Source: an uncultured bacterium
GTDB lineage: Bacteria; CSSED10-310; CAZUFC01
DNA length: 64,000 nucleotides
Direction of reading: 5' to 3'
Assembly: GCA_964619725.1 (NCBI GenBank)
Contig: CAZUFC010000025.1
Coordinates: 1 to 64,000, forward strand
The notes beneath the pieces are model-generated. The model had not been told where the DNA came from. It was given only the letters and a program-made list of their open reading frames with translations, and did not search any database. Of the stretch, positions 26,251-44,996 are shown in pieces. Within the stretch, counting starts at the first letter, position 1, and each line of letters opens with the position of its first letter. The position numbers were made by a program, and so were the translations under genes.

Positions 26251-26256
26251 TTGAAT

Positions 26257-28197: not shown

Positions 28198-28367
28198 GTT
28201 ATTGTATCCCTCTACTTTATGTTTTCCTAAACATTACCGTTGCGTTGAAGGCAGTCTGAGCGTCCCTGCCGCAAGGACCAATCGCCTGGAAACGAGCATT
28301 TTGCGTTCGATGAAGCGTTAAGTTTTCTGTGATCGGGCTCATACTGCCGAGATTAAAAATTCCGAAT

Positions 28368-29237
28368 TTATGGGATTAAAGAAGCCAGAGTTTTTCCGAT
28401 GTCAGCGGGACTTCCGGCCACGGCAGCTCCGGCCTTTTTCAGCGCCTCTATTTTCTCAGGCGCGGTTCCTTTGCCGCCAGAGATAATGGCGCCGGCATGC
28501 CCCATACGTTTTCCCGGAGGCGCTGTTCTGCCTGCGATAAACGCTGCCACAGGTTTTTTGACTTCCCCCTTGATGAATTCCGCCGCTTCCTCTTCCGCTG
28601 TTCCTCCTATTTCCCCGATAAGGACAATGGCGTCGGTATCCGGGTCTTCATTGAACAGTTTAAGGTAATCGATGAAATTCATTCCAAGTATGGGATCGCC
28701 GCCCATGCCGATGCATGTCGATTGTCCTATGTCCCTTTCAGAGAGCTGGTGTATGGCTTCGTAAGTGAGGGTTCCGCTGCGCGATATGACGCCGACGGCG
28801 CCGGGCTTATGAATATATCCCGGCATAATTCCTATTTTGCACTTTCCGGGAGAAATGACGCCCGGGCAGTTCGGCCCTATCAGTCGAACGTCCGTGTTCT
28901 CAATGATTCTTTTTACTTTCACCATATCCAGTACGGGAATGCCTTCGGTTATGCATACGATCAGTTTAATTCCAGCGTCGGCCGCTTCCAGTATCGCATC
29001 TGCGGCGAATGCCGGAGGTACGAAAATCATGGTCGCGTCAGCGCCGGTGGTTTCCCTGGCTTCCGATACGGTATCAAAGACTGGAATTCCTTCCACTTCC
29101 TCGCCGCCTTTTCCCGGCGTAACTCCGCCGACTACTTTCGTGCCGTATTCAAGACAACGGAGAGTATGGAAGGCGCCGGCCTTTCCGGTAATACCCTGAC
29201 AAATCATTTTGGTTTTTTCATCTGCTAGAATCGACAT
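28368..29237 (-). CDS. sucD: Succinyl-CoA synthetase alpha subunit
   Basis: [27 protein letters not shown]. Confidence 0.96.
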
Positions 29238-29252
29238 TTTGCTCGCCCTTAC

Positions 29253-30416
29253 TCAATTTTTGATATTGGAAATTGCTTTTACCGCCGCGTCGTTAAAGTC
29301 TGAGGCTGTAATGATTTTAATATTCGATCTTTCCAGGATCGCCTTTCCTTCCTTCATGTTTGTTCCTTCAAGTCTGACGATGAGAGGAACTTTCAGGTCG
29401 ACTTCCTTGAGAGCCGTCAGAATACCTTCGGCGATGACGTCGCATTTCATGATTCCGCCGAAAATATTGACCAGGACCGCTTTCACGTTAGGGTCCTGAG
29501 TAAGAATTTTAAAGGCTTCCGTAACTTGATCGGTACTTGCGCTCCCTCCTACGTCCAGGAAATTCGCCGGTTCCGCGCCGTGCAGTTTAATGATGTCCAT
29601 GGTAGCCATCGCCAGCCCCGCTCCATTGACCAGGCAGCCGATATTACCGTCAAGAGAAATATAACTCAGTCCGTTTTCCCTGGCAACTACCTCCTTCGGG
29701 TTCTCTTCGGTAACGTCTCTCAATTCAACGATATCAGCATGTCTGAACAATGAATTGTCGTCGAAATTCAGCTTGGCATCCAGCGCTAGCATATCGCCCT
29801 GTTTCGTGACGACCAGCGGGTTGATTTCCGCCAGCGAGCAATCATTGGCCAGGAATGCCCGGTAAAGGTTTGTGATCATCTTAAGGGCCGATTTGAATGT
29901 CTTTTTTTCTCGCAGGCCGAGTTTAAAAGCCATTCGTCTCGCCTGGTAGGACATCAATCCCACGGCCGGATCAACGAATTCCTTGTATATTTTTTCCGGG
30001 GTCTCAGCAGCGACCTTCTCTATTTCCATACCGCCTTCCGAGCTGCCCATTACGGCGACGCGATTAGTGCTTCTGTCGATGACCATTCCCAGATATAGTT
30101 CCCGGTCAATATCACAGGCTTGTTCTATTAAGACTTTGCGAACTTCTTTGCCCTCGGGGGCCTGATGCGTCTTAAGAAGCATTCCCAGAATGTTTCCGGC
30201 ATGAGAACGAACCTCCTGCTCCGATGAAGCCAGTTTGATGCCGCCCGCCTTTCCACGGCCCCCGGCATGCACCTGCGCTTTAACTACCCATTTGTCGCCT
30301 CCGATGCGGGAGGCCGCTTCCGCCGCTTCCTCGACTGAAGCCGCTACCGCTCCGGCAGGAACAGGAACATTGAATTTCCTCAGTATATCTTTTGCTTGAT
30401 ATTCGTGTACTTTCAT
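29253..30416 (-). CDS. sucC: Succinyl-CoA synthetase beta subunit
   Basis: [33 protein letters not shown]. Confidence 0.96.
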
Positions 30417-30427
30417 CCTATTTCTCG

Positions 30428-31012
30428 CTAGTATTTAATTTCAAGGATTCTTCCTGCCGCTTCAGAAGATTCTTGCTCCACCTTCCGATGCAAACTTTGC
30501 CCATACGAATCCATGGTTACGACTACGGGAAATCTTTCCACTTCCAGCACCCACAATGCTTCAGGAGTGCCGAATTCTTCCAGTTTAAAGACTTTTTTAA
30601 CTTTTTTTATGGATTCCGCCAGAACAACAGCCAGTCCGCCTATCGCATGGAAATATACCGCTCCGTATTCGCTGCACGCTTCCAGCGTCCGGTCTCCCAT
30701 GCCTCCTTTGCCTATGATCCCGACTACTCCATATTCCTTTATCACGTCCGCTTCATACGGTTCTTCGCGAATGCTGGTCGTCGGACCGGCTGCAACGACT
30801 TTCCAACCCTCGTCTGTCTTCTTCATTATAGGGCCGCAATGATAAATAACCGAACCCCGCAGGAAGTCTCTCAGTTCTTCCGGCTTTTCCTCCACCATGT
30901 ATTTATGAGCGGCGTCGCGGGCGGTAACGATCTGTCCGGTCAGCGCCGCTTCATCGCCTACTTTGAGTTCTCTGATTCTTTTTTCCGTGGTCGGTAATTC
31001 AATTTCAATCAT
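30428..31012 (-). CDS. Class I Fe-S fumarate hydratase beta subunit (FumA C-terminal / TtdB family)
   Basis: TARDAAH, YHCGP, GPTTS.R, IGKGG. Confidence 0.92.
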
Positions 31013-31868
31013 ACGTCACGCCACCTCCCGAATCGATAATCATTGTGCGGCGCCGGCAAGCCCAGCACATATAGGAAACGGATACGAAAAAACAGGCCGG
31101 GTGACGCACCATGGCGCCCAGTTTGACGCCGAGAACGGTGGTTTTTCCGCCGAAACCCATGGGGCCTATGCCCAGCGAATTCAATTCATCCGTCAATTTG
31201 GATTCCATTTTCGCCAGGGCCGCATTCTCGTTTTCATCGTCAAGCAATCTGAAAAACTGCTCCTTCGACAACCGATAAGAGGTCATCCTGTCGCCGCCTA
31301 TGCCTGCTCCTACCGTGCCCGGCGCGCATCCTTTGCCCTGAGCGGACACGATTGCATCGATAATGCATTTTCTGACTCCCTCAAGGTCCCGGCCGGCATT
31401 CAGCCTGCTGTCCGGCAATTTGTATTGAACGCCTACATTCTCGCTTCCCCCGCCTTTCAACATAAGACGGATTCGCAAGTCCTCCCTCTCCCACTGCTTG
31501 AAAGATATGTAAGGCGCTCCGGTTCCTGTGCCGTCGCCCACATTCTTCCCGCTTATCACGTCCACCGTGTTCGGCCTTAAATAACACTTCGCCGTTGCCT
31601 CCCTGACGGCTTCCGTGATCAGCTCTTTCAATCCATTCTGCTTTCGCGATACGGGATGATCAACATAAAATAACGTAGTCCCCGTATCCTGGCACATCGG
31701 GACGGATTGTTCTCGAGCAAGCTCTATATTTTCCAGTATCCTGTTTAGCGTACTGCGAGCCAGACTCCCTTCCTGCTCCTCCGATGCCGCCGTCCTTATC
31801 CGATTCTCAACATCAACGGGCAAATCCGTCGATGTCCTCCTGATTAGTTCGACAATTTCTTCCTTCAT
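31005..31868 (-). CDS. Class I Fe-S fumarate hydratase alpha subunit (FumA N-terminal / TtdA family)
   Basis: PMCQDTG, KGGGSEN, GIGPMGFGG, HPA, CWA.R. Confidence 0.92.
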   Translation of the reverse strand: MKEEIVELIRRTSTDLPVDVENRIRTAASEEQEGSLARSTLNRILENIELAREQSVPMCQDTGTTLFYVDHPVSRKQNGLKELITEAVREATAKCYLRPNTVDVISGKNVGDGTGTGAPYISFKQWEREDLRIRLMLKGGGSENVGVQYKLPDSRLNAGRDLEGVRKCIIDAIVSAQGKGCAPGTVGAGIGGDRMTSYRLSKEQFFRLLDDENENAALAKMESKLTDELNSLGIGPMGFGGKTTVLGVKLGAMVRHPACFFVSVSYMCWACRRRTMIIDSGGGVTYD

Positions 31869-32006
31869 GATGCATAACTGCTTCCTGAGGCGTTAAAATT
31901 TCTCGCTCCTACGTCCTCCTTGATAAAAACCGCAGGATTACTAAACTCTTCGATTAAGCGTCATCCGTAATCGACGACAATGGGGATTACGGATGATGCG
32001 GACGGT

Positions 32007-32035
32007 AACATAAAGATGAATACTTGTAAAGTGAA
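32007..32035 (-). promoter_or_regulatory. Candidate promoter of the fum-sucCD operon
   Basis: Minus strand TTCACT-N17-TATGTT; a 15-bp inverted repeat (31958-31999) lies just downstream. Confidence 0.3.
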
Positions 32036-32534
32036 AAAACCTGAGAATACTCTATTTTTTTAAGCGAGTTCAATTTTTCCGACGAAACCGGTCTGTTTCT
32101 TCATCAAAGTAAAACGGGAAATTATCTTTATCAGGTTTTATGACTATTCAGCGCCTGTGGGCAGTTGTCCTAACAGTCGCCCGATTATTCGCATCTATCG
32201 GGAAAATCGTTCCAACTTCTGGAAGAGCTGCTGACGGTATAGCGTTAAGAAGCATTTCCGGTTTTTTAGACTTGAATAACATCCTGTTCGCAACAGAGAG
32301 AATTTTTTGCAGAATGAGCAAAAGGATGGCTGGTTCGGGACTGAGTTCCGGTTTTAAAATGGAGGAGTACAGCAAGCAGGCGACATGATTTGAATATATC
32401 TGAGTAGCCTTTAAATTATAGATTTTAAATAGGAAACTGAGTCAAAAGGCTGGAGAAGAGGTATTATTTTTGTCCGGCGGCGGCGAGAAAGCAAAAAAAC
32501 TTTGAATTAGAGGAGAATTTAACAAAAATAAGTG

Positions 32535-32564
32535 TTGATATGAAGGTGAGGAATTTGCTATGTT
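32535..32564 (+). promoter_or_regulatory. Candidate promoter of the hydrogenase operon
   Basis: TTGATA-N18-TATGTT with TGn extended -10. Confidence 0.4.
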
Positions 32565-32772
32565 GCGTATGGTCCCGATTTCCGAAGAGGGACTGCCGGT
32601 TAAGAAATTTTGGCGCAAATCCGTTTTCTGTCTGGTGCGTTATTTAGGATTTAAGGAGGAATGAGAGACAAGGCGAAAGGTAGGAATAGAAGAGTGAAGG
32701 GAAAGTTTACGCCAAATTTTCATAAAATTTTTTATTTTTTTCAGGAGAAGAACTAATTAAAGGAGGTTGCGC

Positions 32773-33765
32773 ATGGCGAAACCAAAGGTAGGCTTTTACT
32801 GGTGCGCATCGTGCGGAGGGTGTGAGGAAGCGGTAGTAGACCTGGCGGAGGACATCCTGACGGTCGTGGATGCGGTAGACATAGTCTTTTGGCCTGTGGC
32901 GATGGATTTCAAGAAGAAGGACGTGGAGGCGATGGCCGACGGCGAGCTGGCAGTAAGTTTCATCAATGGAGGAGTTCGGAACGACGAGCACGAGGAGATG
33001 GTTAAGTTACTGAGGCGGAAGAGCGGATTAGTGGTAGCATTCGGGGCCTGTGCGCATTTAGGAGGCATTCCGGGGTTAGCCAATTTTTCGAATCGCGAGC
33101 TGGTGTTTGAGCGAGCGTATAAGAAGACGGCATCGACGCATAATCCGGATTACGTAACGCCACAGACGAAGAGCAGCGTGAACGGCAAGGAGTTGGAGCT
33201 TCCATTGTTTTGGGACACGTTGCATCCCTTGGATCATATAATCGATGTAGATTACTATTTGCCGGGATGTGCGCCGCCGCCGGATTTAATAATGGATGCA
33301 GTGACGGCCATATTAAAGGGAGAGCTTCCGGAGAAGGGAGCGGTATTGTCGCCGAACAAGTCTTTATGCGATACGTGTCCGCGTTCGGAGAGCAAGCCTG
33401 ATAAGCTGATGATGAAGGACATCAAGCGTCCTTATGAGGTCATTTTAGACCCAGAGAAATGTTTTCTTGAGCAAGGTGTGATATGTTTAGGAATATCGAC
33501 GAGGACGGGATGCGGGGAGCGCTGCATCAACGCGAACATGCCGTGTCGAGGATGTTTCGGGCCGTTGGACGGAATCCAGGACCATGGGGCCAAGACATTG
33601 TCGGCCATAGCGTCTTTAGTGGGTATAGAAGGTGAGGAGAGCATGAGCGAGGAAGAGGTGCAGACGCAGATAGAAAAGATCAAGGACCCTGCAGGACTGT
33701 TCTATATGTATGGGTTGGCATCTTCTTTACTCGGAAGGAAACGCATTAAAGGAGGAAAAGCATAA
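32773..33765 (+). CDS. mvhG: Group 3c [NiFe]-hydrogenase small subunit
   Basis: WCASCGGCE, GACAHLGGIPGL, PGCAP, CFLEQG..CLG..TR.GC...C.....PCRGC. Confidence 0.92.
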   Translation: MAKPKVGFYWCASCGGCEEAVVDLAEDILTVVDAVDIVFWPVAMDFKKKDVEAMADGELAVSFINGGVRNDEHEEMVKLLRRKSGLVVAFGACAHLGGIPGLANFSNRELVFERAYKKTASTHNPDYVTPQTKSSVNGKELELPLFWDTLHPLDHIIDVDYYLPGCAPPPDLIMDAVTAILKGELPEKGAVLSPNKSLCDTCPRSESKPDKLMMKDIKRPYEVILDPEKCFLEQGVICLGISTRTGCGERCINANMPCRGCFGPLDGIQDHGAKTLSAIASLVGIEGEESMSEEEVQTQIEKIKDPAGLFYMYGLASSLLGRKRIKGGKA

Positions 33766-35222
33766 TGAAAAGGGTAACCATAGACCCGATCACCAGGCTG
33801 GAGGGCCACGGCAAGATAGAGATATTTCTTGATGATACGGGCAATGTGGACAAGGCATTTCTGCAGATACCCGAATTAAGGGGATTTGAGGAATTTTCAG
33901 TGGGCCGTATGGCGGAAGAGATGCCCCGGATTACGCCCAAGATATGCGGGGTATGTCCGACGACGCATCACATGGCTTCAGGAAAAACGCTGGACGACCT
34001 GTTTAACGTGGACCCGCCTGCAGCGGCCAAGAAGATTCGCGAGTTGATAAACTGTGCGTTCATGGCTGAGGATCACATACTGCATTTTTATTTTCTGGGC
34101 GGACCTGATTTCGTGGTAGGTCCGGATGCTCCGGCTGCGGAACGCAATATTCTCGGCGTGATCAGCAAGGCGGGAATAGAGGCCGGCAAGAAGGTCATCG
34201 ACATAAGGAAGAAGCTTCGCAACATAATAACGAAGCAGGGCGGTCGTGTGATTCATCCCGTATGCAATCTGCCCGGCGGCGTATCCAAGGGAGTGACGCG
34301 TGAGGACCGGGAGGAGTACATAGCCATAGGGAAGGAAGCGATAGAGTTTGCGCAGTTTTCGTTGAAGCTTTTCGACGACATAGTGTTGAAGAATCAGAGT
34401 TACGTTGATACGATCGTGGGCGATGTTTACAAGCACAACACCTATTACATGGGTCTGGTCGACGGGAACAACAAGGTGAATTTTTACGACGGCGACATCC
34501 GCGTGGTTGACCCTGAAGGAACGGAATACGTCAAGTTCAAGCCGAGCGAGTATCTGGAACACATTGAAGAGCATGTGGAGCCGTGGAGTTATATCAAGTT
34601 TCCATATTTAAAGAATATTGGCTGGAAAGGATTCGTGGACGGCAAGGAGAGCGGAGTTTACCGCGTAGCGCCGCTGGCGCGATTGAATGCTGCAGACGGT
34701 ATGGCGACGCCTCTGGCGCAGGCTGAATACGACAAGATGTACGAAGTTCTGGGCGGCAAACCGGCTCATAATACTCTGGCTTATCATTGGGCCCGGCTGG
34801 TGGAAGTCCTCTATGCAGCCGAGAGATTGCTGGAATTGGCGGAAGATGAAGAAATACTTGATCCGACGGTGAGGAAGATACCGGAATCAGAGCCGAATGA
34901 AGGAATAGGAGTGGTGGAAGCGCCGCGGGGCACGCTTTTTCACCATTACAAGTCGGACAAGGACGGCATACTGACGGATGTAAATTTAATTGTAGCGACA
35001 GTCAACAATTCTGCAGCATTGTGCATGTCTGTAGCCAAAGCCGCTTCAGGCGTCATCAAAAACGGCGAAGTGACGGACGGCGCTCTCAACATGGTCGAAA
35101 TGGCCTTCCGCGCTTATGATCCGTGTATGGCGTGCGCGACGCATTCGCTGCCTGGCCAGACGCCGTTGGAAGTGAAGATACGCGATCCCAGGGGAAGAAC
35201 GCTCAAAACTTTGCGACGTTAG
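33765..35222 (+). CDS. mvhA: Group 3c [NiFe]-hydrogenase large subunit (all-Cys active site)
   Basis: DPITRLEGHG, RGFE, ICGVCP, EAPRG, RAYDPCMACATH followed by a cleavable extension. Confidence 0.95.
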   Translation: MKRVTIDPITRLEGHGKIEIFLDDTGNVDKAFLQIPELRGFEEFSVGRMAEEMPRITPKICGVCPTTHHMASGKTLDDLFNVDPPAAAKKIRELINCAFMAEDHILHFYFLGGPDFVVGPDAPAAERNILGVISKAGIEAGKKVIDIRKKLRNIITKQGGRVIHPVCNLPGGVSKGVTREDREEYIAIGKEAIEFAQFSLKLFDDIVLKNQSYVDTIVGDVYKHNTYYMGLVDGNNKVNFYDGDIRVVDPEGTEYVKFKPSEYLEHIEEHVEPWSYIKFPYLKNIGWKGFVDGKESGVYRVAPLARLNAADGMATPLAQAEYDKMYEVLGGKPAHNTLAYHWARLVEVLYAAERLLELAEDEEILDPTVRKIPESEPNEGIGVVEAPRGTLFHHYKSDKDGILTDVNLIVATVNNSAALCMSVAKAASGVIKNGEVTDGALNMVEMAFRAYDPCMACATHSLPGQTPLEVKIRDPRGRTLKTLRR

Positions 35223-35256
35223 CATTTCCGAAAGGGGAAATTATCATCTCGATATT

Positions 35257-35712
35257 ATGAGAACGTTAGTATTGGGTTTGGGCAATCCGATTTTATCGGA
35301 TGATTCTGTGGGAATAAAAGTGGCGCAGATGCTCAAAAAGGCGGACCCGCCTTTAAAAGCGGAGATAAAAGAGGCGTGTGCGGGGGGGCTTACTATCCTG
35401 GACGAACTGGACGGTTTCGACCGGGTGATACTGGTGGACTCGATAAAGACGGGTAAAGCTTCCCCGGGAACGATTTACAGGCTGAAAGAGGAGGATTTCA
35501 ACAGCACGACGCAGTTGTCCGATTCCCATGGCATTGATTTTTTCACAGCGATTGAGATGGGGCGGATATATGGTTGTAAAATGCCGGAGTTAATCGACAT
35601 TTTCGCTGTTGAGGTGGAAGATAACGTTACCTTTAGCGAAGACTGCACTGACAAGGTGATGGAGAGTATCCCCATATTAGTGCGTCAGATAACGGAGGAG
35701 GTAAGCCGTTAA
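35257..35712 (+). CDS. Hydrogenase maturation protease
   Basis: LGLGNPILSDDSVG, VILVD, SH motif. Confidence 0.92.
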   Translation: MRTLVLGLGNPILSDDSVGIKVAQMLKKADPPLKAEIKEACAGGLTILDELDGFDRVILVDSIKTGKASPGTIYRLKEEDFNSTTQLSDSHGIDFFTAIEMGRIYGCKMPELIDIFAVEVEDNVTFSEDCTDKVMESIPILVRQITEEVSR

Positions 35713-37157
35713 TGGAAATAGATTTTGATCGATTAGAAAAAATTGTCGGACCGCAGAACGTGAGAAAGGACCCTGTGGATTTGTACATTTATGGAACGGA
35801 TTCTTCAGTGCACGGGGTTCCTGCGAGCGTAGTGGTAAGGCCTGAAAGCACAGAGCAAGTGCAGGAAGTGCTGCGTTACGCTAATTCCGCGGTCATTCCG
35901 GTTACGGCTCGCGGGGGCGGTTCCGGCATGTCGGGCCAGGCGATTCCGATGCGCGGCGGAATAGTGTTGGATTTAAAGCGGATGAACCGCATTCTTGATA
36001 TAAGACCGGCCGATACGTTATGCGTCGTTGAAGCCGGGGTTGTGGACGACGACCTTAACCGCGCTCTGAAGCCTTACGGGGTTTTCTGGCCTGCGGCTCC
36101 CGCTTCGAGTCGCGTGGCGACTATCGGCGGCGAGATCGTCAACAACGCCAGCGGATTGCGTTCCGTCAAATACGGGGCGACAAGAGATTCTGTATTGGGA
36201 ATGAAGGTCGTTATGGCCAACGGCGATTTGATTAAATTGGGAGCAAACACGCGAGTAGAAGCTTCAGGGTATCAGCTTGACAGACTCATGGTCGGGTCGG
36301 AGGGCACCCTCGGCATCGTCGTAGAAGCCACCCTCAAAATAGTGCCCCTGCCGAAATTCAGATGCATGGGGGTTTCCTATTTCAAGGAACTGGAGCATGC
36401 AGGTGACGCTATTACGGACATTATTTCAAAGGGATGTCAGCCGTCGGTCCTGGAACTGATGGACGACGTAGCCATCGTTGCGGTGAATCGCGCCCTGGAT
36501 ATGGGCTTGCCGGAAGTTGAAGCTCTGCTCTTTTTTGAAGCGGACGGCATGGTTAAAGAAGTAGTGGATTATGAAATGGACAGAATGAAGACTCTATGTG
36601 AAGAAAAGGGCGGCTTCGGCATTCATATGAGTTACGATGCCAAGGAAAGAACCAAAATTTTCTCTTCGCGGAAGAAACTTTTCCCTGCATTATCTCAGTA
36701 TAGAGACGATCTGGCGTGCACATCTCTGGCCGATGATATGGCCGTCCCTTATTCTCGTATGGCGGAACTGGCCCGGAAAATACATGAAATTGCGGATAAA
36801 AATAACGTGGTGATGACGGCATACGGCCACTGCGGTTCAGGTTGCATGCATACCAAGATATTGATGGACCCGACCAAGGAATCGCAATGGGACGATGCCA
36901 GAAGAGCTGTCCAGGAAACTTATGATTATGTTTATTCCCTGGGCGGAACTACTTCAGCAGAACATGGGATCGGGCTGTCCAAAGCTCCTTCCTTCAAGAA
37001 AGAAAAGGCGGATTCGCTGGCCGTAATGAAGGCCGTCAAGAAGGCGCTTGACCCTAATAACATTCTGAACCCTGACAAGATGCAGGATGCCCCTGATGAT
37101 TGGGTTACGGCGACCAAGCTTCGTTATAACGTGTGCGGATGCTCCGGTTACTATTAG
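35712..37157 (+). CDS. FAD-linked 2-hydroxyacid dehydrogenase, GlcD/D-lactate dehydrogenase family
   Basis: ARGGGSGMSG, ATIGG...NASG...KYG, GSEGTLGI, GH.G.G..H, SAEHGIG, LDP.NILNP.K. Confidence 0.9.
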   Translation: MEIDFDRLEKIVGPQNVRKDPVDLYIYGTDSSVHGVPASVVVRPESTEQVQEVLRYANSAVIPVTARGGGSGMSGQAIPMRGGIVLDLKRMNRILDIRPADTLCVVEAGVVDDDLNRALKPYGVFWPAAPASSRVATIGGEIVNNASGLRSVKYGATRDSVLGMKVVMANGDLIKLGANTRVEASGYQLDRLMVGSEGTLGIVVEATLKIVPLPKFRCMGVSYFKELEHAGDAITDIISKGCQPSVLELMDDVAIVAVNRALDMGLPEVEALLFFEADGMVKEVVDYEMDRMKTLCEEKGGFGIHMSYDAKERTKIFSSRKKLFPALSQYRDDLACTSLADDMAVPYSRMAELARKIHEIADKNNVVMTAYGHCGSGCMHTKILMDPTKESQWDDARRAVQETYDYVYSLGGTTSAEHGIGLSKAPSFKKEKADSLAVMKAVKKALDPNNILNPDKMQDAPDDWVTATKLRYNVCGCSGYY

Positions 37158-37181
37158 GGGATTGAGGATAGAGGAGGAACA

Positions 37182-37730
37182 ATGGAATTCAAGAATTCGG
37201 AAAAATGGAGATGCAAATTAAATGCGTGCATCAGGTGCGGGTATTGCTATGAAAATTGTCATTTGTTCCGCGTAAGCGGATGGGAAACGGATACGTCGCG
37301 GTCCAAGTTGGTGATGCTGCACGGTATAATGGAGGGCGACCTGGAACCGACGGAATATGCTGTCGAGAAGTTCTTCCAATGTTACATGTGCAAGCGGTGC
37401 GATACTACATGTTCCGCCAAGGTCCCCGTTACGGATATTTTCAAGGATGCGCGGGCTGATTTCATTGAAGCCGGCTTTGATCCGGTAGGAACCATATCTC
37501 AAACGGATGAAGATGTCTGCTGCAGGTGTCAGATATGCATTTCCGTCTGCAAGCATGAAGCTCGTTCCTATGACAAGGAAAACGATAAAATCGTGGTGGA
37601 CAAGGTTAAATGTGAAAGTTGCGGCTGTTGCGTCGCGGCATGCCCTTCGGGAGCTGCCTATAGTCCGGAGGGTTTTGGCGTCAGTCAAAAAGAATTGCGA
37701 GAACAGGTTGTTGTTTTTCTGGGAGGATAA
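37182..37730 (+). CDS. Chimeric Fe-S protein: GlcF/HdrD-type N-terminal dicluster plus HdrA-type C-terminal ferredoxin
   Basis: CIRCGYC...C...ETDTSRSK and CYMCKRC...C (GlcF-like); DEDVCCRCQICISVC and CESCGCCVAACPSGA (HdrA C-terminus-like); no CCG domain. Confidence 0.8.
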   Translation: MEFKNSEKWRCKLNACIRCGYCYENCHLFRVSGWETDTSRSKLVMLHGIMEGDLEPTEYAVEKFFQCYMCKRCDTTCSAKVPVTDIFKDARADFIEAGFDPVGTISQTDEDVCCRCQICISVCKHEARSYDKENDKIVVDKVKCESCGCCVAACPSGAAYSPEGFGVSQKELREQVVVFLGG

Positions 37731-37735
37731 TTAAT

Positions 37736-38128
37736 ATGAGCGACCGAAAAACCATTATTTTCTTTTGTGAGTGGTCATCGCATCCCGGTCTGAAACTGTC
37801 GCGTTATGCCGAAGAGGAATCCGGCAAGGAACAAAAAATGATCGTCAGCATGTGCCAGGGAAGGGTTTCCCCGGAATTGATCCTGGAAGCCTTCGGAAAG
37901 GGCGCCTGGGGCGTCATGCTGGCCAGTTGCCCGCCGGATGAATGCGAACATGATGCTAATTACAAGGCGCGCCGCAGAATTCTGTTGACGCAAAAAGTCC
38001 TGGAACAATTCGGTATAGAAAAGGATCGGCTTCAAATGGAGTGGATCAGCAAGGGAGACGCCGCCGCTTTCGATAAAGCAGTTCTCAACTTCGAAAGTCA
38101 CATCACTGAACTGGGGCCGCCGCTTTGA
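37736..38128 (+). CDS. mvhD: Divergent MvhD/FlpD subunit
   Basis: FFCEW, MCQGRV, GA.GV...SCPPDECEH, N.KARRR, GIEKDRL..EWIS. Confidence 0.85.
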   Translation: MSDRKTIIFFCEWSSHPGLKLSRYAEEESGKEQKMIVSMCQGRVSPELILEAFGKGAWGVMLASCPPDECEHDANYKARRRILLTQKVLEQFGIEKDRLQMEWISKGDAAAFDKAVLNFESHITELGPPL

Positions 38129-38188
38129 TTAATCTTATGACTTGAAGGGAAAAGGTTCTGCTGCCGCTTCCTGATTCTGAAAGTTATC

Positions 38189-38227
38189 AAATGCCGGAAG
38201 TCTGGTCGAACCAGGCTTCCGGCATTT
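38189..38227. terminator. Bidirectional intrinsic terminator
   Basis: AAATGCCGGAAG / CTTCCGGCATTT arms with additional inner pairing, between convergent genes. Confidence 0.75.
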
Positions 38228-39604
38228 TTAGTCGGAAATCCAAACAGTCTTGATATTGACGAATTCTCGTATGCCCTCTTCGGAAAGCTCTCTCCCGTAA
38301 CCGGATTCTTTTATGCCGCCGAAGGGAAGCCGTGGGTCCGATTTAACCATTCCGTTGACGAATATGCAGCCGGCATTTATTTTTGAGGCCAGCCCGGCGC
38401 CCAGTTTCGTATCGGCGGTCCAGACGGAAGCGCCCAATCCGTAAGGGGTATGATTGGCCAGTCTGACGGCATCTTCAGTATCCCTGGCTTCAATAACCGC
38501 TGCAACCGGACCGAAAGTTTCTTCATCAGCCGCCGGCATACCGGGCGCGACGCGGGTCAGCATCGTCGCAGGATAGAAATACCCTTTGCCTTCAGGAACT
38601 TTTCCGCCCAGCACAACCTCAGCCCCCTTCTCAACAGACTCCGTTACCTGCCTGTGCAATTTATTCCTCAGGTCTTCACGAGCGAGAGGTCCGATATCAG
38701 CGTCATCCTGCAGAGGATCGCCCATTTTGAGTCTGGCGAGTCCTTTTTTCATAAGGTCGCAAAATTCTTCCCAAACCTCTTTGACAACAATAAAACGCTT
38801 CGCCGCAATGCAACTCTGCCCGGAATTCAACGCCCTGGATTGAACTCCGGTCTCAGCCGCTCGTTTCAAATCAGCATCCTTGAGGACGATAAAAGGGTCG
38901 CTGCCTCCCAATTCCATTACTGTCTTTTTCAGCGCACGACCCGCTGTAGAAGCAACGCTTCGGCCTGCCCTGTCGCTTCCCGTTAAAGTGACGGCGCTGA
39001 CGGCGTTATGACTTATAATATCGCCTACATCCTCTTCTGAAACGAAAAGATTTACAAAAACGCCTTCAGGAAAACCGGCCTCACGGAAAATCCCTTCAAT
39101 GGCCTGGGCGCACTGGGGAACGTTCGGCGCATGCTTCAACAAAGCAGCGTTGCCCGCCGTCAGCGCCGGCGCCGCAAATCGGAATACCTGCCAGAATGGA
39201 AAATTCCAGGGCATTATCGCCAGTATCACTCCCAGAGGATCGTAACGAACGTAACTCTCTTTCGCATCAGAACTCTTGCGGCGGCTCAACAGAAATTCTT
39301 CCGCATTATCCGCGAAATAACGGCATACCCAGGCGCATTTCGCCGCTTCACCCTGCGCTTCCTTTATAGGCTTGCCCATCTCGACCGTCATCAGCTCACC
39401 CAATCGTCTCTTCTCGTCCTCAAGCAGGTCCGCCGCCTTGTGCAGAAGCTCGGTTCTTTTTTTCAAAGGCGTTTCTCGCCACGAATCGAAAGCTCTTGAC
39501 GCAGTTCCCAATAATACCTTCGTCTCCTCTTTGCTTATACATTCAAACTCTTTTAATACCTCGCCGCTTGATGGATTTCGTGAGATAAAATTCCTTGCGC
39601 TCAT
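38228..39604 (-). CDS. NAD(P)-dependent succinate-semialdehyde dehydrogenase (Sad/GabD1-like)
   Basis: IMPWNFPFWQ, LTGS, ELGGSDP, GQSCIAAKR, EETFGP, PFGG.K.SG.GRE. Confidence 0.88.
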   Translation of the reverse strand: MSARNFISRNPSSGEVLKEFECISKEETKVLLGTASRAFDSWRETPLKKRTELLHKAADLLEDEKRRLGELMTVEMGKPIKEAQGEAAKCAWVCRYFADNAEEFLLSRRKSSDAKESYVRYDPLGVILAIMPWNFPFWQVFRFAAPALTAGNAALLKHAPNVPQCAQAIEGIFREAGFPEGVFVNLFVSEEDVGDIISHNAVSAVTLTGSDRAGRSVASTAGRALKKTVMELGGSDPFIVLKDADLKRAAETGVQSRALNSGQSCIAAKRFIVVKEVWEEFCDLMKKGLARLKMGDPLQDDADIGPLAREDLRNKLHRQVTESVEKGAEVVLGGKVPEGKGYFYPATMLTRVAPGMPAADEETFGPVAAVIEARDTEDAVRLANHTPYGLGASVWTADTKLGAGLASKINAGCIFVNGMVKSDPRLPFGGIKESGYGRELSEEGIREFVNIKTVWISD

Positions 39605-40097: not shown

Positions 40098-41285
40098 ATG
40101 AATAAAACATCAGAAAAAATTTCAATCAACGAAGGTCGACTGAGTGGAAGTCAAGCATGCGTCGAGGGCGCCTTTGCGGCAGGATGCCGTTTTTACAGCG
40201 GTTATCCGATAGAGCCTGCATTGGATGTAATGAATTATTTTTTAAAGCGGGCGCCTCATTTTGATGCCACGTTCATTCAAATGGAAGATGAGATATCGGC
40301 TCTGGCGGCATTGCTGGGAGCGGTATGGACGGGCAAGCGAGGATTAACGGCGACGTCCGGACCGGGTTTTTCGCTCATGATGGAGCATCTGGGACTGGGC
40401 ATCATGCTTGAGACTCCATGCGTAATTGTGGATGTGCAGAGGGCCGGTTTATCGACGGGGATACCGGAGATGGCTGGTCAGGGAGACGTGATGCAGGCCC
40501 GGTGGGGGTCACACGGAGATTACGAATTAGTAACGTTATGTCCGAGTTCTCCACAGGAAATGTTTAATTTCACGTTTGAGGCGTTCAATCTGGCGGAGAG
40601 GTACAGGATACCAGTGGTAGTATTGACGGATGAGTATGTAGCGCACATGGAGGGTGAGGTAACGGCGCCGGACAGGGTAGAGATTGAGCCGCGCCGGTAT
40701 TTTACGGGTCCGAAGGATCAGTATTTTCCGTTCAAGCGGGACAGGGACCTGATTCCCCGCATGGTGGACATAGGACAGGGTTACAGGTTTCATGTGACAG
40801 GACTGACGCACGATGACCGGGGTTACCCCATTATGAACGAGGAATGCCAGGAGTATAACGTTCATCCTCTGGTCTGGAAGATACGGAGGAACGAGGACAA
40901 GTTAACGCGGGTGAAGGAGACCAGGACGGAGGATGCTGAGGTTATCATCGTTTCATACGGAGCGACGGTGAAATTTGCTCTTCGTGCGGTAGAGGAGGCG
41001 CGAAAGGCGGGAATAAAGGCGGGTCATATGCAAATAGAGGTGATCTGGCCGTTTCCCGACAAGCATATAGCTAAAGCGGCCAAGAACGTGAAGGCTTTCG
41101 TAGTGCCTGAGATGAATCACGGTCAGGCAGTTTACGAGGTTCAGAGGAGCAGCTACGGCGGAGCCAACGTTGTATTCGTGCATCATGGAGAGGATGGAAT
41201 CGAGAACATAGATGCGATGCTTTCCGCTATGGAAAACGCCATAAAAGAACCGGGTATCAAAGAGGGGATACTCGAATACCGTTAG
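40098..41285 (+). CDS. korA: 2-oxoacid:ferredoxin oxidoreductase alpha subunit, copy 1 (variant YPIEP)
   Basis: GYPIEP, QMEDE, TSGPGFSLM.E, QRAGLSTG, PEMN.GQ. Confidence 0.88.
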   Translation: MNKTSEKISINEGRLSGSQACVEGAFAAGCRFYSGYPIEPALDVMNYFLKRAPHFDATFIQMEDEISALAALLGAVWTGKRGLTATSGPGFSLMMEHLGLGIMLETPCVIVDVQRAGLSTGIPEMAGQGDVMQARWGSHGDYELVTLCPSSPQEMFNFTFEAFNLAERYRIPVVVLTDEYVAHMEGEVTAPDRVEIEPRRYFTGPKDQYFPFKRDRDLIPRMVDIGQGYRFHVTGLTHDDRGYPIMNEECQEYNVHPLVWKIRRNEDKLTRVKETRTEDAEVIIVSYGATVKFALRAVEEARKAGIKAGHMQIEVIWPFPDKHIAKAAKNVKAFVVPEMNHGQAVYEVQRSSYGGANVVFVHHGEDGIENIDAMLSAMENAIKEPGIKEGILEYR

Positions 41286-41295
41286 GGAGCTATTA

Positions 41296-42159
41296 ATGGA
41301 AGTAACTGAAGAAAAAAAGATTCAAGCGAGTGAAAACGAACATCCGTTGGAGGACCTGCTCCGAATGGACAGGATTCCTCATATCTGGTGTCCCAGTTGC
41401 GGCATAGGCTTGGGGGTGACGGCTTTTGCCGATGCTTTGAACCGTGCCGAGGTTGATCTGGACAATCTGGCGATTGTTTCAGGTATCGGGTGCACCGGAA
41501 GGGTGGCGGGATATACGAAGCTGGATTCTTTTCATACGACGCATGGAAGGCCAATCGCTTTTGCGACGGGCATCAAGGTGGGCAATCCCAAGTTGAAGGT
41601 GGTGGTTTTTTCCGGCGACGGCGATTTGATATCGATCGGCGGGAACCATTTCATTCATGCTGCGAGAAGAAACATAGACATGCTGGTGATATGCGTGAAC
41701 AATTTCATATACGCCATGACGGGCGGTCAGGTCGCTCCGACGACGCCGCTGGGCGCATATGCGACGACTTCGCCGTACGGATGCTGCGAAGCGCCGTTTA
41801 ACGTTCCCTATATAGCGGATTCGGCGGGCGCTGTTTATGTAGCCAGGTGGACCGCATTGCATATCAGGAGGTTGACCAATTCCATCGTCGAGGCGTTGAA
41901 CAAGAATGGGTTATCGGTCATTGAGGTGATATCGCCTTGCGCAATGTATTATTCCAGGATCAATAAGCTGGGCGACGGTTTGGACATGATGAGGTTCTAT
42001 CATGAGAATTCGGAAGTGAGGAACGGCGAGGATACGAAGAACGTTGATTTATCATTTCAGTCAAAAATCGTCGTCGGGAAATTTGTAGATAGAGAGAGAC
42101 CGAGTTACACGGATTTGTATAAGAAGTGGGCAGATGAAGTCAAAGGAAAGAAAGAATGA
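41296..42159 (+). CDS. korB: 2-oxoacid:ferredoxin oxidoreductase beta subunit, copy 1 (canonical)
   Basis: WCPSCG, SGIGC, HGR, GDGD...IGGNH, NN..Y.MTGGQ..PTT, SPC. Confidence 0.92.
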   Translation: MEVTEEKKIQASENEHPLEDLLRMDRIPHIWCPSCGIGLGVTAFADALNRAEVDLDNLAIVSGIGCTGRVAGYTKLDSFHTTHGRPIAFATGIKVGNPKLKVVVFSGDGDLISIGGNHFIHAARRNIDMLVICVNNFIYAMTGGQVAPTTPLGAYATTSPYGCCEAPFNVPYIADSAGAVYVARWTALHIRRLTNSIVEALNKNGLSVIEVISPCAMYYSRINKLGDGLDMMRFYHENSEVRNGEDTKNVDLSFQSKIVVGKFVDRERPSYTDLYKKWADEVKGKKE

Positions 42160-43397
42160 AGGCAGACCCTAAAAATGTAAAGACAGGCATATATTGCATG
42201 GACGGGGATGTTGCAGCGGGATATGGAGCGTTGGCTGCCGGTTGCGGTTTCATTGCGGGTTATCCGATTACTCCGTCGACTGAAGCAGCGGAGGCGTTCG
42301 CAAAGATTGCGCCTACGGCAGGCGCCCTGTTTATTCAGATGGAAGATGAGCTGGCATCCATTGCCGCCATCATGGGGGCAGTCTGGGCCGGCGTTAAAGC
42401 CATGACTATAACGTCAGGACCGGGATTCTCGCTCATGATGGAAACCATCGGTTTGGGCGCTATGATCGAAGCTCCGTTCGTCCTGCTGAACATCCAGAGG
42501 GGAGGACCGTCGACGGGAGTTCCCACGAAGACGGGCCAGGCGGACATGATGCAGTCCCGCTGGGGATCGCAAGGCGATTATGAGGTTATCGCGTTATCGC
42601 CGGATTCGCCGCAGGAAATGTTCAATTATACGATAAAGGCGTTTAATCTTGCTGAAAAATACCGATGTCCGGTTATGATTATGTCGGATGAATGCGTCGG
42701 GCACATGACCGAGAAGGTCGTCGTGCCGGAAGCCGACGAGATTGAAATTGTTCCGAGGCGTTTTTATTCGGGACCGAGAGAAGAATACAAGCCCTTCAAG
42801 CCCGATCAGGATATGGTTCCCCCCATGGTCAGGATAGGCGACGGTTACAATCTCTGCATCTCCAGCATGATCCATGACGAAATGGGCCATCCCATTGATA
42901 AGGAGCATTACAGGTCGAAATATACGAGACGCCTGGTCGACAAAATAAGGCGTAATAAAAACGACATCATCGAGTTGTCGGAAGACGGCATCGAGGATGC
43001 CGAAGTTGTCGTGGTTTCTTACGGCATTTCTTACAGAGTGGCGGTGAGAGGTATCGAGAAGGCCAGGGAGAGAGGGATAAAGGTCGGAAATTTAAGACTT
43101 ATAACAGTATTTCCCTTTCCCGATGAAAAAATTGCTGAATTGTCTCACAGGGTTAAAGCGTTCGTTGTTCCTGAGATTAACTATGGCCAGATCGTATACG
43201 AAGTGGAAAGGTGTTCGCATGGCAATGCCAACGTGGTTCTGGTTCCTCACGGAGGAGCGGGAGTTCAGCATCCGGACGATATAGCCGATGCTATTGAGTA
43301 TGCAGCGAAAGAAGAACGCAGGATAGAGGGCTTTATCGAACATCAAACAAAACTTGAAAAACTGGTTTTTTCAGAAGGTTACGTAGTAAAAGAATGA
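42156..43397 (+). CDS. korA: 2-oxoacid:ferredoxin oxidoreductase alpha subunit, copy 2 (canonical)
   Basis: GYPITPSTE, QMEDE, TSGPGFSLM.E, QRGGPSTG. Confidence 0.92.
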   Translation: MKADPKNVKTGIYCMDGDVAAGYGALAAGCGFIAGYPITPSTEAAEAFAKIAPTAGALFIQMEDELASIAAIMGAVWAGVKAMTITSGPGFSLMMETIGLGAMIEAPFVLLNIQRGGPSTGVPTKTGQADMMQSRWGSQGDYEVIALSPDSPQEMFNYTIKAFNLAEKYRCPVMIMSDECVGHMTEKVVVPEADEIEIVPRRFYSGPREEYKPFKPDQDMVPPMVRIGDGYNLCISSMIHDEMGHPIDKEHYRSKYTRRLVDKIRRNKNDIIELSEDGIEDAEVVVVSYGISYRVAVRGIEKARERGIKVGNLRLITVFPFPDEKIAELSHRVKAFVVPEINYGQIVYEVERCSHGNANVVLVPHGGAGVQHPDDIADAIEYAAKEERRIEGFIEHQTKLEKLVFSEGYVVKE

Positions 43398-44158
43398 ATC
43401 CGTTAATCAAAGCAATAGAAAAAGGAATCGAAAAATCGGGATTTGCGCCCTGCAATGTCTGCATTGCTTCGGATATCCCGTTTAAACCGGAAACAGTGAA
43501 GAATCTGGGGGTCGATTTTTTTCATGTTATTCGAGGGCGTACCGTCGCCTTCGGGACGGGAATTAAATTGGCTAATCCTATGTTGAAAGTTGTTCCTGTG
43601 GTCGGAGACCTGATGACGCTCGGAGGAAACCACGTGGTTCATGCGGGCAGAAGAAACATGGAACTTCATGTGATATGCGTAAACACCTTCATATATGATA
43701 GAATAGCCGGAAAAAAGGCGCCGTCTGCCGACACCCGCTTCGCAAACTATTCTACATTCGAGAGTCCCTTTAATGTACCTCATGTCGCCAATTCCTGCGG
43801 AGCGGTATTTACAGCGCGATGGACGGCATTGCATACGAATGAGATAGCCGATTCGATAGCTGCGTCCTTTGAGAAGAGCGGTTTTACAGTTGTGGAAGTT
43901 TTATGCCCGGGGCCAAATTTTTATTCGGACATTGATCATATCAACGAGGAACTGCTTTCTTTTTACCATGAGAATTCGGATGTGAGAAACGGCGAGGAAC
44001 CGAGGAGCGCAGAGATCGACCCGGAGGAAAAAATTGCAGTGGGCAATTTCACTGATATTGAGAGACCGACGTTTTTAGACGTCTACAACATTCAACTACC
44101 AAAAAGATTGGGTGACAAGTTTACCCCGTATTGTGGATGTGGTGAGCAAAATGGCTGA
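43394..44158 (+). CDS. Degenerate 2-oxoacid:ferredoxin oxidoreductase beta subunit, copy 2
   Basis: Colinear with korB copy 1 (GIKLANP.LKV, GGNH..HA.RRN, ARWTALH) but lacks CPxCG, GIGC, GDGD and MTGGQ. Confidence 0.82.
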   Translation: MNPLIKAIEKGIEKSGFAPCNVCIASDIPFKPETVKNLGVDFFHVIRGRTVAFGTGIKLANPMLKVVPVVGDLMTLGGNHVVHAGRRNMELHVICVNTFIYDRIAGKKAPSADTRFANYSTFESPFNVPHVANSCGAVFTARWTALHTNEIADSIAASFEKSGFTVVEVLCPGPNFYSDIDHINEELLSFYHENSDVRNGEEPRSAEIDPEEKIAVGNFTDIERPTFLDVYNIQLPKRLGDKFTPYCGCGEQNG

Positions 44159-44693: not shown

Positions 44694-44696
44694 GCA

Positions 44697-44996
44697 ATGG
44701 CAAATAAGAGATATTGGCGAAAACCTTTCGATTTGAACAGACGTGAACGTCCGCTGGGCAAGATTCACATCATCAAGGAAAGATGCAAGGGCTGCGGTTT
44801 TTGCGTTCAATACTGCCCCTGCGGCGTTCTGGAATTGTCAAAAGAATTTAATACGAAAGGTTATCATCCGCCTTATGTGAAGAATCCGGACGATTGCGTC
44901 AATTGCGGATTGTGTGAAATGTTGTGTCCGGAATTCGCCATCTGGTCGACGCTGGATAAAATGATCAGCGGCGAAAAAGTTTTAAAGAAACGGTAA
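44697..44996 (+). CDS. korD: 2-oxoacid:ferredoxin oxidoreductase delta (ferredoxin) subunit
   Basis: CKGCGFCVQYCP, N.KGYH, CVNCGLCEMLCPEFAI. Confidence 0.9.
   Translation: MANKRYWRKPFDLNRRERPLGKIHIIKERCKGCGFCVQYCPCGVLELSKEFNTKGYHPPYVKNPDDCVNCGLCEMLCPEFAIWSTLDKMISGEKVLKKR

Follow-up and report, generated by a model that had tools for sequence, protein, structure and literature searches.

The window analyzed here is a 64,000-nt stretch of DNA (contig CAZUFC010000025.1) from the 9.17 Mb genome of an uncultured bacterium of the GTDB lineage CSSED10-310. On its plus strand, it carries a six-gene operon (32773-38128) that encodes the two subunits of a group-3c-type [NiFe]-hydrogenase (MvhG, MvhA), a maturation protease, a GlcD-like dehydrogenase, a 182-aa Fe-S protein that we refer to as the adaptor, and MvhD. 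The GlcD-like enzyme, the adaptor and MvhD very probably form a core complex, and we lean towards the view that the operon as a whole encodes a soluble, non-bifurcating H2:2-oxoacid (oxaloacetate or pyruvate)/D-2-hydroxyacid oxidoreductase. An earlier, sequence-only reading of this DNA had proposed a soluble H2:2-oxoacid oxidoreductase; the GlcD-adaptor-MvhD core of that proposal is now well supported, and the wiring of this core to MvhAG, its substrate and the direction of the reaction are what we infer from the observations discussed below.

Genetic Organization of the Operon

The genes are tightly packed, with a spacing that ranges from an overlap up to 35 nt, and the ATG of mvhG is preceded at a distance of 6 nt by a ribosome-binding site (AGGAGG). 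Their content and order (mvhG-mvhA-protease-glcD-like-FeS-mvhD), as given in the sequence-only reading, were confirmed by Pfam and NCBIfam domain assignments (Table 1), and so was its statement that neither hdrA nor a gene for a CCG-domain protein is present within the operon; PF02754, the site of the non-cubane cluster of HdrB/CCG proteins, was found by Pfam in none of the six gene products. This statement needs to be qualified by the presence of an hdrA-mvhD-hdrC-hdrB set (24440-28197, minus strand) in the divergently oriented neighboring operon, 4.6 kb from mvhG. A second PF01565 gene that would be a candidate for glcE is absent from the operon, and no Etf domain was detected in the six operon genes or the scanned neighbors, a search that did not extend to the rest of the genome.

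The Ni-Fe ligand motifs of MvhA can be read directly from its sequence (CGVCPTTHH near the N-terminus and DPCMACATH near the C-terminus, followed by a C-terminal extension for processing). The protein hence possesses both the N-terminal CxxC and the C-terminal DPCxxC of group 3c large subunits, and an MvhD [2Fe-2S] subunit is encoded together with the hydrogenase, as is expected for this group. MvhG and MvhA score below the NCBI equivalog cut-offs, and by this measure are relatives, rather than equivalogs, of the Vhu/Mvh proteins of methanogens.

The Adaptor Is a Chimeric Iron-Sulfur Protein

The sequence-only reading had regarded the adaptor as a chimera, a view that was borne out by our comparisons. 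Its N-domain (residues 1-100) is of the GlcF/HdrC type and its C-domain (residues ~105-170) is of the type found in the C-terminal ferredoxin of HdrA. Over 99 residues, the N-half and the N-terminus of a 351-aa GlcF-like CCG protein encoded elsewhere in the same genome (contig C34) are 45% identical, and residues 106-169 of the adaptor align with residues 572-636 of the HdrA protein encoded in the window (44% identity over 66 residues, E 2e-11); the motif that had been noticed in both proteins is real and lies in this C-terminal stretch of HdrA. When the PDB was searched with profiles, the best single-stretch matches of the C-half were the C-terminal ferredoxin domains of HdrA (values for the adaptor family profile: 9sfi_A, 1.4e-17; 8rvu_a, 1.9e-17; 5odc_A, 6.5e-14), and polyferredoxins outranked HdrA overall only through multiple matches. 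The AlphaFold2 model of the adaptor (predicted local distance difference test [pLDDT] 91.5; predicted template-modeling score 0.85) retrieved HdrA chains as all of its top seven Foldseek hits.

In the model of the HdrA2-MvhD fusion (777 positions), adaptor residues 105-159 correspond to positions 571-623 and residues 5-128 of MvhD to positions 649-773, so that the two proteins are collinear with the fusion. The match to HdrA is limited to positions ~565-641 of the latter; the flavoprotein core is absent from the adaptor, in which Pfam detects no Pyr_redox domain. Likewise, the match to GlcF is confined to residues 13-86, and Pfam and NCBIfam find no CCG domain. The adaptor contains 16 cysteine residues that are invariant in two alignments, a number that fits four putative [4Fe-4S] clusters.

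The GlcF-like protein of contig C34 is encoded as the second member of a paralogous pair (C34:55900-58792, minus strand), in which it follows GlcD2, a protein that is 64% identical to the GlcD of the operon; a homologue of this GlcF-like protein carries a Fer4_8 and a CCG domain. The 45% identity of its N-domain to that of the adaptor suggests that the latter arose from a GlcF-like gene.

The GlcD-Like Dehydrogenase and Its Predicted Interface with the Adaptor

The closest matches of the GlcD-like protein in the PDB are an enzyme designated 'glycolate oxidase' (9qgz, 1e-75) and LctD of the Acetobacterium woodii Ldh-EtfAB complex (7qh2_C, 3.3e-72); other solved relatives are the mitochondrial D-lactate dehydrogenase (LDHD; 1e-58) and D-2-hydroxyglutarate dehydrogenase (1.9e-46). 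According to passages of the structural study of LctD (PMC9232219), Arg328, His377, His384, Glu422, and His423 of this enzyme serve as carboxylate ligand, metal ligands, and catalytic base. They align with R320, H373, H380, E417, and H418 of the GlcD-like protein, and these five residues are invariant in 25 orthologues (63-73% identity) from bacteria and archaea. The protein thus possesses both flavin adenine dinucleotide (FAD) domains of VAO/PCMH-fold D-2-hydroxyacid dehydrogenases, together with their metal-binding residues (His, His, Glu), their catalytic His and their carboxylate-binding Arg. The scores for GlcD itself stay below the equivalog cut-offs (TIGR00387, 370.5 versus 567.9; PRK11230, 269.5 versus 897). 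At the position of the LctD pocket residue Tyr386, for which 9qgz has Leu and LDHD has Ile, the GlcD family associated with the adaptor possesses an invariant Lys382, a residue that could be a ligand for a second carboxylate.

The modest score of 370.5 bits, and the functional breadth of a family whose members among the PDB matches include alkyl-dihydroxyacetone phosphate synthase and cresol methylhydroxylase, could be taken to mean that the GlcD-like enzyme carries out some other VAO/PCMH-type reaction on a substrate that is not a 2-hydroxyacid. We consider such a different chemistry highly improbable in view of the conservation and invariance of the metal-binding, catalytic and carboxylate-binding residues of LctD, the fact that all of the closest relatives with solved structures act on 2-hydroxyacids, and the finding that the most common neighbor of the gene encodes a homologue of a 2-hydroxyacid racemase (see below).

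A complex of adaptor, MvhD, and GlcD was modeled with a 25-row alignment for each protein and with GlcD as the scored partner. The interface score (ipSAE) was 0.90 in all three runs and 0.00 for the best of three controls; contacts agreed to at least 91% between runs, and the pLDDT of the partner was 90. For calibration, 58 of 80 solved complexes attained this mark, as opposed to 2 of 110 mismatched pairs, figures that apply only roughly when user-supplied alignments are used. On the side of the adaptor, the modeled interface is formed by residues 11-80, which belong to the GlcF-like N-domain and comprise members of both Cys motifs; residues 17-25 of MvhD also take part. GlcD contributes residues 18-32, 69-71, 87-96, 109-118, 132-135, 324-338, and its conserved tail (469-473), with 69-71 and 132-135 representing loops of the FAD domain. 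Since a sequence search did not turn up a solved complex of the GlcD-GlcF type, it is unlikely that the model merely recalls a known structure. The adaptor-GlcD interface that the sequence-only reading had asked for is hence predicted, and the model supports, without proving it, the binding of GlcD to the N-domain of the adaptor.

One GlcD orthologue from a Thermoplasmatota genome (L046:6509-7930) contains a single in-frame TGA at codon 333 that is found in none of the other copies examined; it could reflect a sequencing error, a pseudogene or recoding, and the GlcD protein of locus L047 was used in its place.

A Conserved GlcD-Adaptor-MvhD Triad

A large protein collection contained 92 adaptor homologues of near-identical length (46-75% identity), of which 17 possess a C-terminal MvhD domain. 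The longer homologues are, without exception (71 of 71), adaptor::MvhD fusions of 320-345 aa, and none of these 71 proteins represents a fusion to GlcD or MvhG (e.g., GlcD-adaptor or adaptor-MvhD-MvhG). A further candidate fusion (P0098; 561 aa, with FliG_C and GNAT domains) was rejected, as it looks like a mis-joined gene call. The family of full-length adaptors is compact, with about four representatives at 50% identity.

Scanning a single genome for each GTDB species yielded 293 candidate loci, a number that constitutes an upper bound because the search patterns are located in the N-domain, which is common to GlcF-like proteins. The best 80 loci with verified full-length adaptors were compared with the window proteins through local tblastn searches; the counts given below refer to these loci, and it should be noted that related genomes among them are not independent samples. 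Judged by their record titles, the 80 loci span at least 14 named phylum-level groups, among them Cloacimonadota, Marinimicrobia, KSB1, WOR-3, Armatimonadota, Chloroflexota/Dehalococcoidia, Acidobacteriota, Desulfobacterales, Gemmatimonadota, Pirellulaceae, Spirochaetia, Coatesbacteria, Thermoplasmatota, and Woesearchaeota. The mvhD gene is located directly 3' of the adaptor gene in 78 of the 79 assessable loci and is joined with it into a single open reading frame in 45 of the 80; glcD is found upstream of the adaptor gene in 65 of 73 assessable loci. A lack of conserved synteny, which the sequence-only reading had named as speaking against its proposal, is consequently not what was found: the order GlcD-adaptor-MvhD is conserved, and MvhGA is encoded in 32 of the 80 loci (see below). 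Ten genomes with loci that either lack GlcD (eight) or are short upstream (two) were checked, and each of them holds a GlcD orthologue elsewhere (64-73% identity), four of which are accompanied by a GlcF-like protein, three by LarA, and two by a second copy of the adaptor. No full-length adaptor was present in any of 13 genomes searched from the phylum of the window's bacterium; on this basis, the module was probably acquired horizontally.

The MvhD proteins of these loci form a lineage of their own. Residues C11, C40, C65, and C70 of MvhD are invariant in our alignment. In a tree of 121 MvhD proteins, the 78 copies that follow an adaptor, including that of the operon, are positioned on one side of a branch with a Shimodaira-Hasegawa-like approximate likelihood ratio test (SH-aLRT) value of 100; the other 43 proteins on the opposite side follow HdrA, protease or FrhB-like genes, or another MvhD. 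The MvhD of the window's hdrA-mvhD-hdrCB set (25825-26250) groups with this canonical clade. As judged from the tree, the MvhD of the operon is dedicated to the adaptor and belongs to a separate clade.

Genomic Association of the Triad with the MvhGA Hydrogenase

MvhG or MvhA (>45% identity) is encoded in 32 of the 80 loci; among the 38 for which at least 6 kb are available on both flanks, the number is 15. The triad and MvhGA are joined in at least six gene orders. The order of the window, mvhGA-(protease)-glcD-adaptor-mvhD, recurs in L027. It is probably also that of L026, for which the stretch available includes, of the hydrogenase genes, only mvhG. Other orders are glcD-adaptor-mvhD-mvhGA; either of these two arrangements with an inserted gene for a GlcF-like protein; mvhGA-protease-mvhD-glcD-adaptor::mvhD-mvhD, seen mainly in Thermoplasmatota; a linkage of adaptor-mvhD to mvhGA without glcD; and mvhG-adaptor::mvhD-mvhA in L061, in which the fusion gene is inserted between the two hydrogenase genes. 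Among the eight assessable loci that are devoid of GlcD, MvhGA is present in seven.

Of the 48 loci without Mvh in the stretch examined, 36 belong to genomes in which MvhA is matched elsewhere with at least 54% identity (33 matches near full length, three split or partial); such a match was obtained for 3 of 40 adaptor-less genomes that served as a rough control and were not phylogenetically matched. In several Acidobacteriota-type genomes (G041, G079, G084, G085, G081), MvhA homologues contain exactly one in-frame TGA and may represent selenocysteine-containing large subunits.

C4-Dicarboxylate Genes in the Neighborhood of the Triad

A LarA homologue is encoded in 35 of the 80 loci, in 29 of them directly 3' of MvhD. 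Other recurrent neighbors, found in phyla other than that of the window as well, are HdrA or HdrA-like proteins (23 loci), HdrBC (18), SucCD (16), fumarase (16), FrdA/B-like proteins (15), and GlcF-like proteins (15); the window holds all of these kinds with the exception of the GlcF-like gene, which is situated on contig C34. Homologues of the alpha subunit of 2-oxoacid:ferredoxin oxidoreductase are encoded upstream of sucCD-glcD in L014, L022, L023, and L025.

The LarA homologue matches the malate racemase Mar2 (6d6z, 1.9e-75) better than a LarA entry of the PDB (5huq, 2.6e-49), and its scores with the LarAH6 malate racemase model NF052593 (390-398 bits) exceed those with the lactate racemase model (289-291 bits). 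Passages of the study by Desguin et al. (2020; PMC7583248) report oxidoreductases of COG0277 and COG0247 in the vicinity of several LarA groups, and malate racemases are described in parts of the 2024 follow-up paper (PMC11770544) as the largest group of the LarA superfamily. Taken together, the LarA, fumarase, SucCD, and Frd-like neighbors suggest D-malate/oxaloacetate at least as strongly as lactate.

Proposed Electron Path and Alternative Explanations

We propose that electrons would travel from the [NiFe] site of MvhA via three [4Fe-4S] clusters of MvhG to the [2Fe-2S] cluster of the dedicated MvhD, from there through two [4Fe-4S] clusters of the C-domain and two of the N-domain of the adaptor to the FAD of the GlcD/LctD-type enzyme, and finally to the substrate. 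The net reaction would be H2 + 2-oxoacid <-> D-2-hydroxyacid, without bifurcation. In the absence of further coupling, H2 oxidation would be favored because of the potentials of the couples involved (H+/H2, -414 mV; oxaloacetate/malate, about -170 mV; pyruvate/lactate, -190 mV); the formation of H2 from the hydroxyacid would need either a very low H2 level or coupling to reduced ferredoxin. Oxaloacetate/D-malate would be the likeliest substrate pair, followed by pyruvate/D-lactate. The LarA-type racemase would interconvert the D- and L-acids, and L-malate could then pass to fumarase, the Hdr-linked fumarate-reductase-like enzyme, SucCD, and 2-oxoacid:ferredoxin oxidoreductase, all of which are encoded nearby. 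Passages of a 2026 Nature paper (PMC13518236) describe that Vhu or FdhAB dock via HdrA's N- and C-terminal regions along with a helix from VhuD, and it fits this picture, by analogy, that the C-domain of the adaptor and MvhD would reproduce part of the HdrA docking platform.

Several observations weigh against this interpretation. Most of the loci (48 of 80) are devoid of Mvh in the stretch examined, the control for genomic co-occurrence is crude, and 12 of the 48 corresponding genomes, which may be incomplete, showed no close MvhA (41-43%, 39% or 31% identity, or no match). Since these 12 genomes showed no close MvhA, the triad, as far as gene content tells, does not strictly need the MvhGA hydrogenase. 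The genome under study encodes a single MvhGA of this type, and this enzyme could serve the neighboring hdrA-mvhD-hdrCB set in textbook fashion, so that this set could be the partner of the hydrogenase instead of, or in addition to, the triad. With respect to the substrate, the closest solved relatives of GlcD act on glycolate or lactate and not on malate, the LarA homologues of the window (390.4) and of L060 (397.6) score below the equivalog cut-off of NF052593 (500), and two NAD-type malate dehydrogenases are encoded nearby, which makes a D-malate route look redundant.

The proximity of the hdr genes leads to a possible, if rather unlikely, alternative, namely that the triad is an electron input/output module of an HdrA hub (associated here with the Frd-like proteins) and docks via its MvhD on HdrA(BC). 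Bifurcation or confurcation would then take place at this hub (for instance from hydroxyacid and reduced ferredoxin to H2 via MvhAG, or from hydroxyacid to fumarate), and MvhGA would adjoin the triad only as a feeder of the same hub. Such a view would account for the frequency of HdrA and HdrBC in the loci, for the hdrA-mvhD-hdrCB-frdBA order in the divergent operon of the window, for the genomes without a close MvhA, and for those Thermoplasmatota-type loci in which a canonical MvhD that belongs to the hydrogenase precedes GlcD-adaptor::MvhD. In those parts of the literature that we consulted, the MvhD proteins known so far occur together with HdrA, and confurcation would render a flow from hydroxyacid to H2 feasible, as judged by analogy with LctBCD from passages of PMC9232219. 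Yet, the adaptor already contains the HdrA-type C-terminal ferredoxin, the domain that is positioned next to MvhD in HdrA-MvhD fusions, and it therefore looks like a replacement of HdrA rather than its ligand. Moreover, neither Mvh nor HdrA is encoded nearby in 19 of the 38 loci whose flanks are fully covered, and in L057 and L059 adaptor-MvhD is joined directly to mvhGA without an hdrA gene in the stretch examined.

It is also conceivable, but in our view improbable, that a physical link to the hydrogenase does not exist. The triad would then work on its own as an oxidoreductase between D-2-hydroxyacids and ferredoxin (or another soluble carrier) and would share no more than its regulation with MvhAG, and the latter would serve only HdrA-MvhD-HdrBC. 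The triad indeed stands alone with LarA in many genomes (29 loci have LarA directly 3' of MvhD, and most of these lack Mvh), and the clostridial-type C-domain resembles many ferredoxin-interacting modules. What a self-contained enzyme does not account for is the near-complete retention of MvhD and its frequent fusion to the adaptor; we know of no role of MvhD other than the bridging of modules. Nor does it account for the presence of MvhGA in 32 loci in at least six arrangements, including the insertion between mvhG and mvhA, or for the genomic co-occurrence (36 of 48 versus 3 of 40 in the unmatched control). We continue to favor a direct path from MvhAG through MvhD and the adaptor to GlcD.

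Relationship to Known Enzyme Systems

The known function of group-3c hydrogenases is that of feeding electrons into bifurcating complexes based on HdrA. With one of these, the H2:heterodisulfide oxidoreductase MvhADG-HdrABC of methanogens (PDB 5ODC family), the operon shares homologues of MvhA, MvhG, and MvhD, a ferredoxin of the HdrA C-terminal type with two [4Fe-4S] clusters next to MvhD, and an HdrC-like dicluster further along the wire. It differs through the absence of the HdrA flavoprotein core, and hence of the bifurcating FAD, and of HdrB or a CCG active site; its terminal enzyme is a GlcD-type flavoenzyme, and its MvhD falls into a separate clade.

LctBCD (Ldh-EtfAB; 7QH2) of A. woodii contains LctD, which together with 9qgz ranks closest to the GlcD-like protein among its solved relatives, the active-site residues are conserved, and in both cases the flavoenzyme passes electrons to a dedicated protein partner. 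The lct operon presumably also carries the gene for a LarA-type racemase. The partner of LctD is EtfAB with its bifurcating FAD and NAD+, whereas in the operon under study, which is devoid of etf, an Fe-S adaptor, MvhD, and a hydrogenase would take its place.

In GlcDEF and in D-lactate dehydrogenases of the GlcD plus GlcF/HdrD type, which in passages of PMC9723677 and PMC10667645 include the archaeal Dld-HdrD, a GlcD-type subunit is likewise combined with a partner containing a dicluster similar to that of the adaptor N-domain, and a GlcF-like CCG protein shares its cluster with the triad in 15 of the 80 loci. The operon, in contrast, lacks GlcE, and the adaptor lacks CCG domains; the CCG half is replaced by the HdrA-type ferredoxin plus MvhD, so that electrons would be sent to a partner that docks via MvhD instead of to a site of the disulfide or quinone type. 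The HdrA2-MvhD fusion of HdrA2B2C2 from Methanosarcina (NF040770) exhibits the same collinear ferredoxin-MvhD order, which is mirrored by the natural adaptor::MvhD fusions, whereas everything N-terminal of the ferredoxin domain is replaced in the adaptor by a GlcF/HdrC-type domain of 100 residues.

The LarA neighbors match Mar2 (6D6Z), a malate racemase of the LarA superfamily, best, with scores below the equivalog cut-off. A word search of PMC11770544 yielded no occurrence of 'hydrogenase' or 'heterodisulfide', and no link of LarA to MvhD or a hydrogenase is made in the consulted portions of this paper and of PMC7583248. A GlcD-adaptor-MvhD or Mvh-GlcD complex was not found to be described in the full-text literature, whose coverage does not extend to supplements and subscription journals. 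The nearest published idea, found in passages of papers on metagenome-assembled genomes of Asgard archaea and Korarchaeia, is that Dld-HdrD feeds thiols to Hdr-Mvh; a survey of Cloacimonadota annotates MvhADG-HdrABC without noting GlcD.

Other Features of the Window

Table 1. Features of the operon and of its neighborhood in the window.
Feature	Position	Strand	Basis
LarA homologue, closest to malate racemase	18272-19657	-	Best matches Mar2, NF052593
Divergent 13-gene string: fumarase alpha and beta, sucC, sucD, hdrA, mvhD, hdrC, hdrB, frdB-like, tfrA/frdA-like, two malate dehydrogenases, LarA homologue	18272-31868	-	Pfam, NCBIfam
tfrA/frdA-like gene	21906-23567	-	Located within the divergent string
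Intergenic region between the two divergent operons; presumed location of promoters	31869-32772	.	Sequence reading
mvhG, small subunit of group-3c-type [NiFe]-hydrogenase	32773-33765	+	PF01058 1.8e-22, above cut-off; best NCBIfam VhuG, 212.7 bits (cut-off 450)
mvhA, large subunit	33765-35222	+	PF00374; best NCBIfam VhuA, 418.6 bits (below equivalog cut-off of 800)
Hydrogenase maturation endopeptidase (HycI/HybD type)	35257-35712	+	TIGR00072 93.8 bits (above cut-off of 47.45); PF01750
GlcD/LctD-type FAD-dependent D-2-hydroxyacid dehydrogenase	35712-37157	+	PF01565 and PF02913
Adaptor with four putative [4Fe-4S] clusters, 182 aa	37182-37730	+	Fer4_17/Fer4_8, residues 13-81; Fer4_7, residues 113-158
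mvhD, adaptor-linked clade, [2Fe-2S]	37736-38128	+	PF02662 115.9 bits
Aldehyde dehydrogenase, succinate-semialdehyde-dehydrogenase-like, convergent	38228-39604	-	PF00171 465 bits; NF006915 588.7 (below cut-off of 730)
Two 2-oxoacid:ferredoxin oxidoreductase alpha/beta sets, gamma, and ferredoxin	40098-44996	+	NF006412 473 and 508 bits (above cut-off of 411); PF02775, PF01558, Fer4

A promoter-like site is present between the divergent operons (32535-32564, plus strand), a type of site that is no more common here than in shuffled sequences; the scan of 31700-38500 as a whole was uninformative (six promoter-like sites versus 6.5 expected, two terminator-like sites versus 7.6 expected). The sequencing runs retrieved were four DNA runs of a single microbial-mat study; none was of RNA. 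The aldehyde dehydrogenase gene that follows the operon in convergent orientation is probably not part of the system, since a homologue occurs in only one of the 80 loci (L070). A 560-aa open reading frame on the plus strand (21837-23519) lacks a Pfam match and is a spurious antisense shadow of the tfrA/frdA-like gene.

At 12178-18152 (plus strand), a 974-aa HdrA-like protein and MvhD are encoded, followed by two FrhB-like Fe-S proteins and another MvhD. This unit recurs beside the triad in other phyla (L013, L017, L019, L022, L024, L028, L033, L034, L072) and may represent another module plugged in via MvhD. A single string on the minus strand (59945-63930) unusually pairs genes for succinate dehydrogenase (SdhA/FrdA, 62227-63930; SdhB-like, 61500-62291) with those for a Rieske protein (61036-61503) and cytochrome b (59945-61036). 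The window also contains a giant reading frame for a 3438-aa protein with right-handed beta-helix/NosD repeats (47897-58213, minus strand; 11 Beta_helix stretches) and, at 2695-6811 (minus strand), a fragment of a DUF772 transposase together with the gene for a 1148-aa PAS-GAF-GGDEF-EAL signaling protein.

Biological Implications

The adaptor illustrates the recombination of Hdr, Glc, and Mvh modules, as it joins an HdrC/GlcF-type dicluster to the C-terminal ferredoxin of HdrA and to MvhD. Annotation pipelines label it as 'ferredoxin' or 'hydrogenase iron-sulfur subunit', and it is therefore missed by current metabolic reconstructions. Its carriers include uncultured lineages that are dominant in anoxic sediments, mats, and digesters.

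A broader proposal, which we put forward as a doubtful one, is that the triad represents a widespread and hitherto undescribed class of 'MvhD-plugged' D-2-hydroxyacid dehydrogenases that would constitute a second, non-bifurcating outlet for group-3c hydrogenases and would operate in an H2-powered reductive C4-C5 branch that is free of pyridine nucleotides. In such a branch, H2 would reduce oxaloacetate to D-malate, which the nickel-pincer malate racemase would convert into L-malate; the subsequent steps would fall to fumarase, a TfrA-like fumarate reductase linked to HdrABC-MvhD (with possible bifurcation to ferredoxin), SucCD, and 2-oxoglutarate:ferredoxin oxidoreductase. If true, this branch would supply the missing physiological role of malate racemases, and already the link of the triad to LarA may explain what these enzymes are for.

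Many anaerobic bacteria and archaea carry this gene set, through which H2 may directly reduce, or be formed from, organic acids such as malate or lactate. If our interpretation holds, a direct wire to a substrate-level dehydrogenase that bypasses the bifurcating flavin would be a new output for group-3c hydrogenases, and anaerobes would have a new means of linking H2 with the redox chemistry of organic acids that requires neither NAD(P)H nor free ferredoxin.

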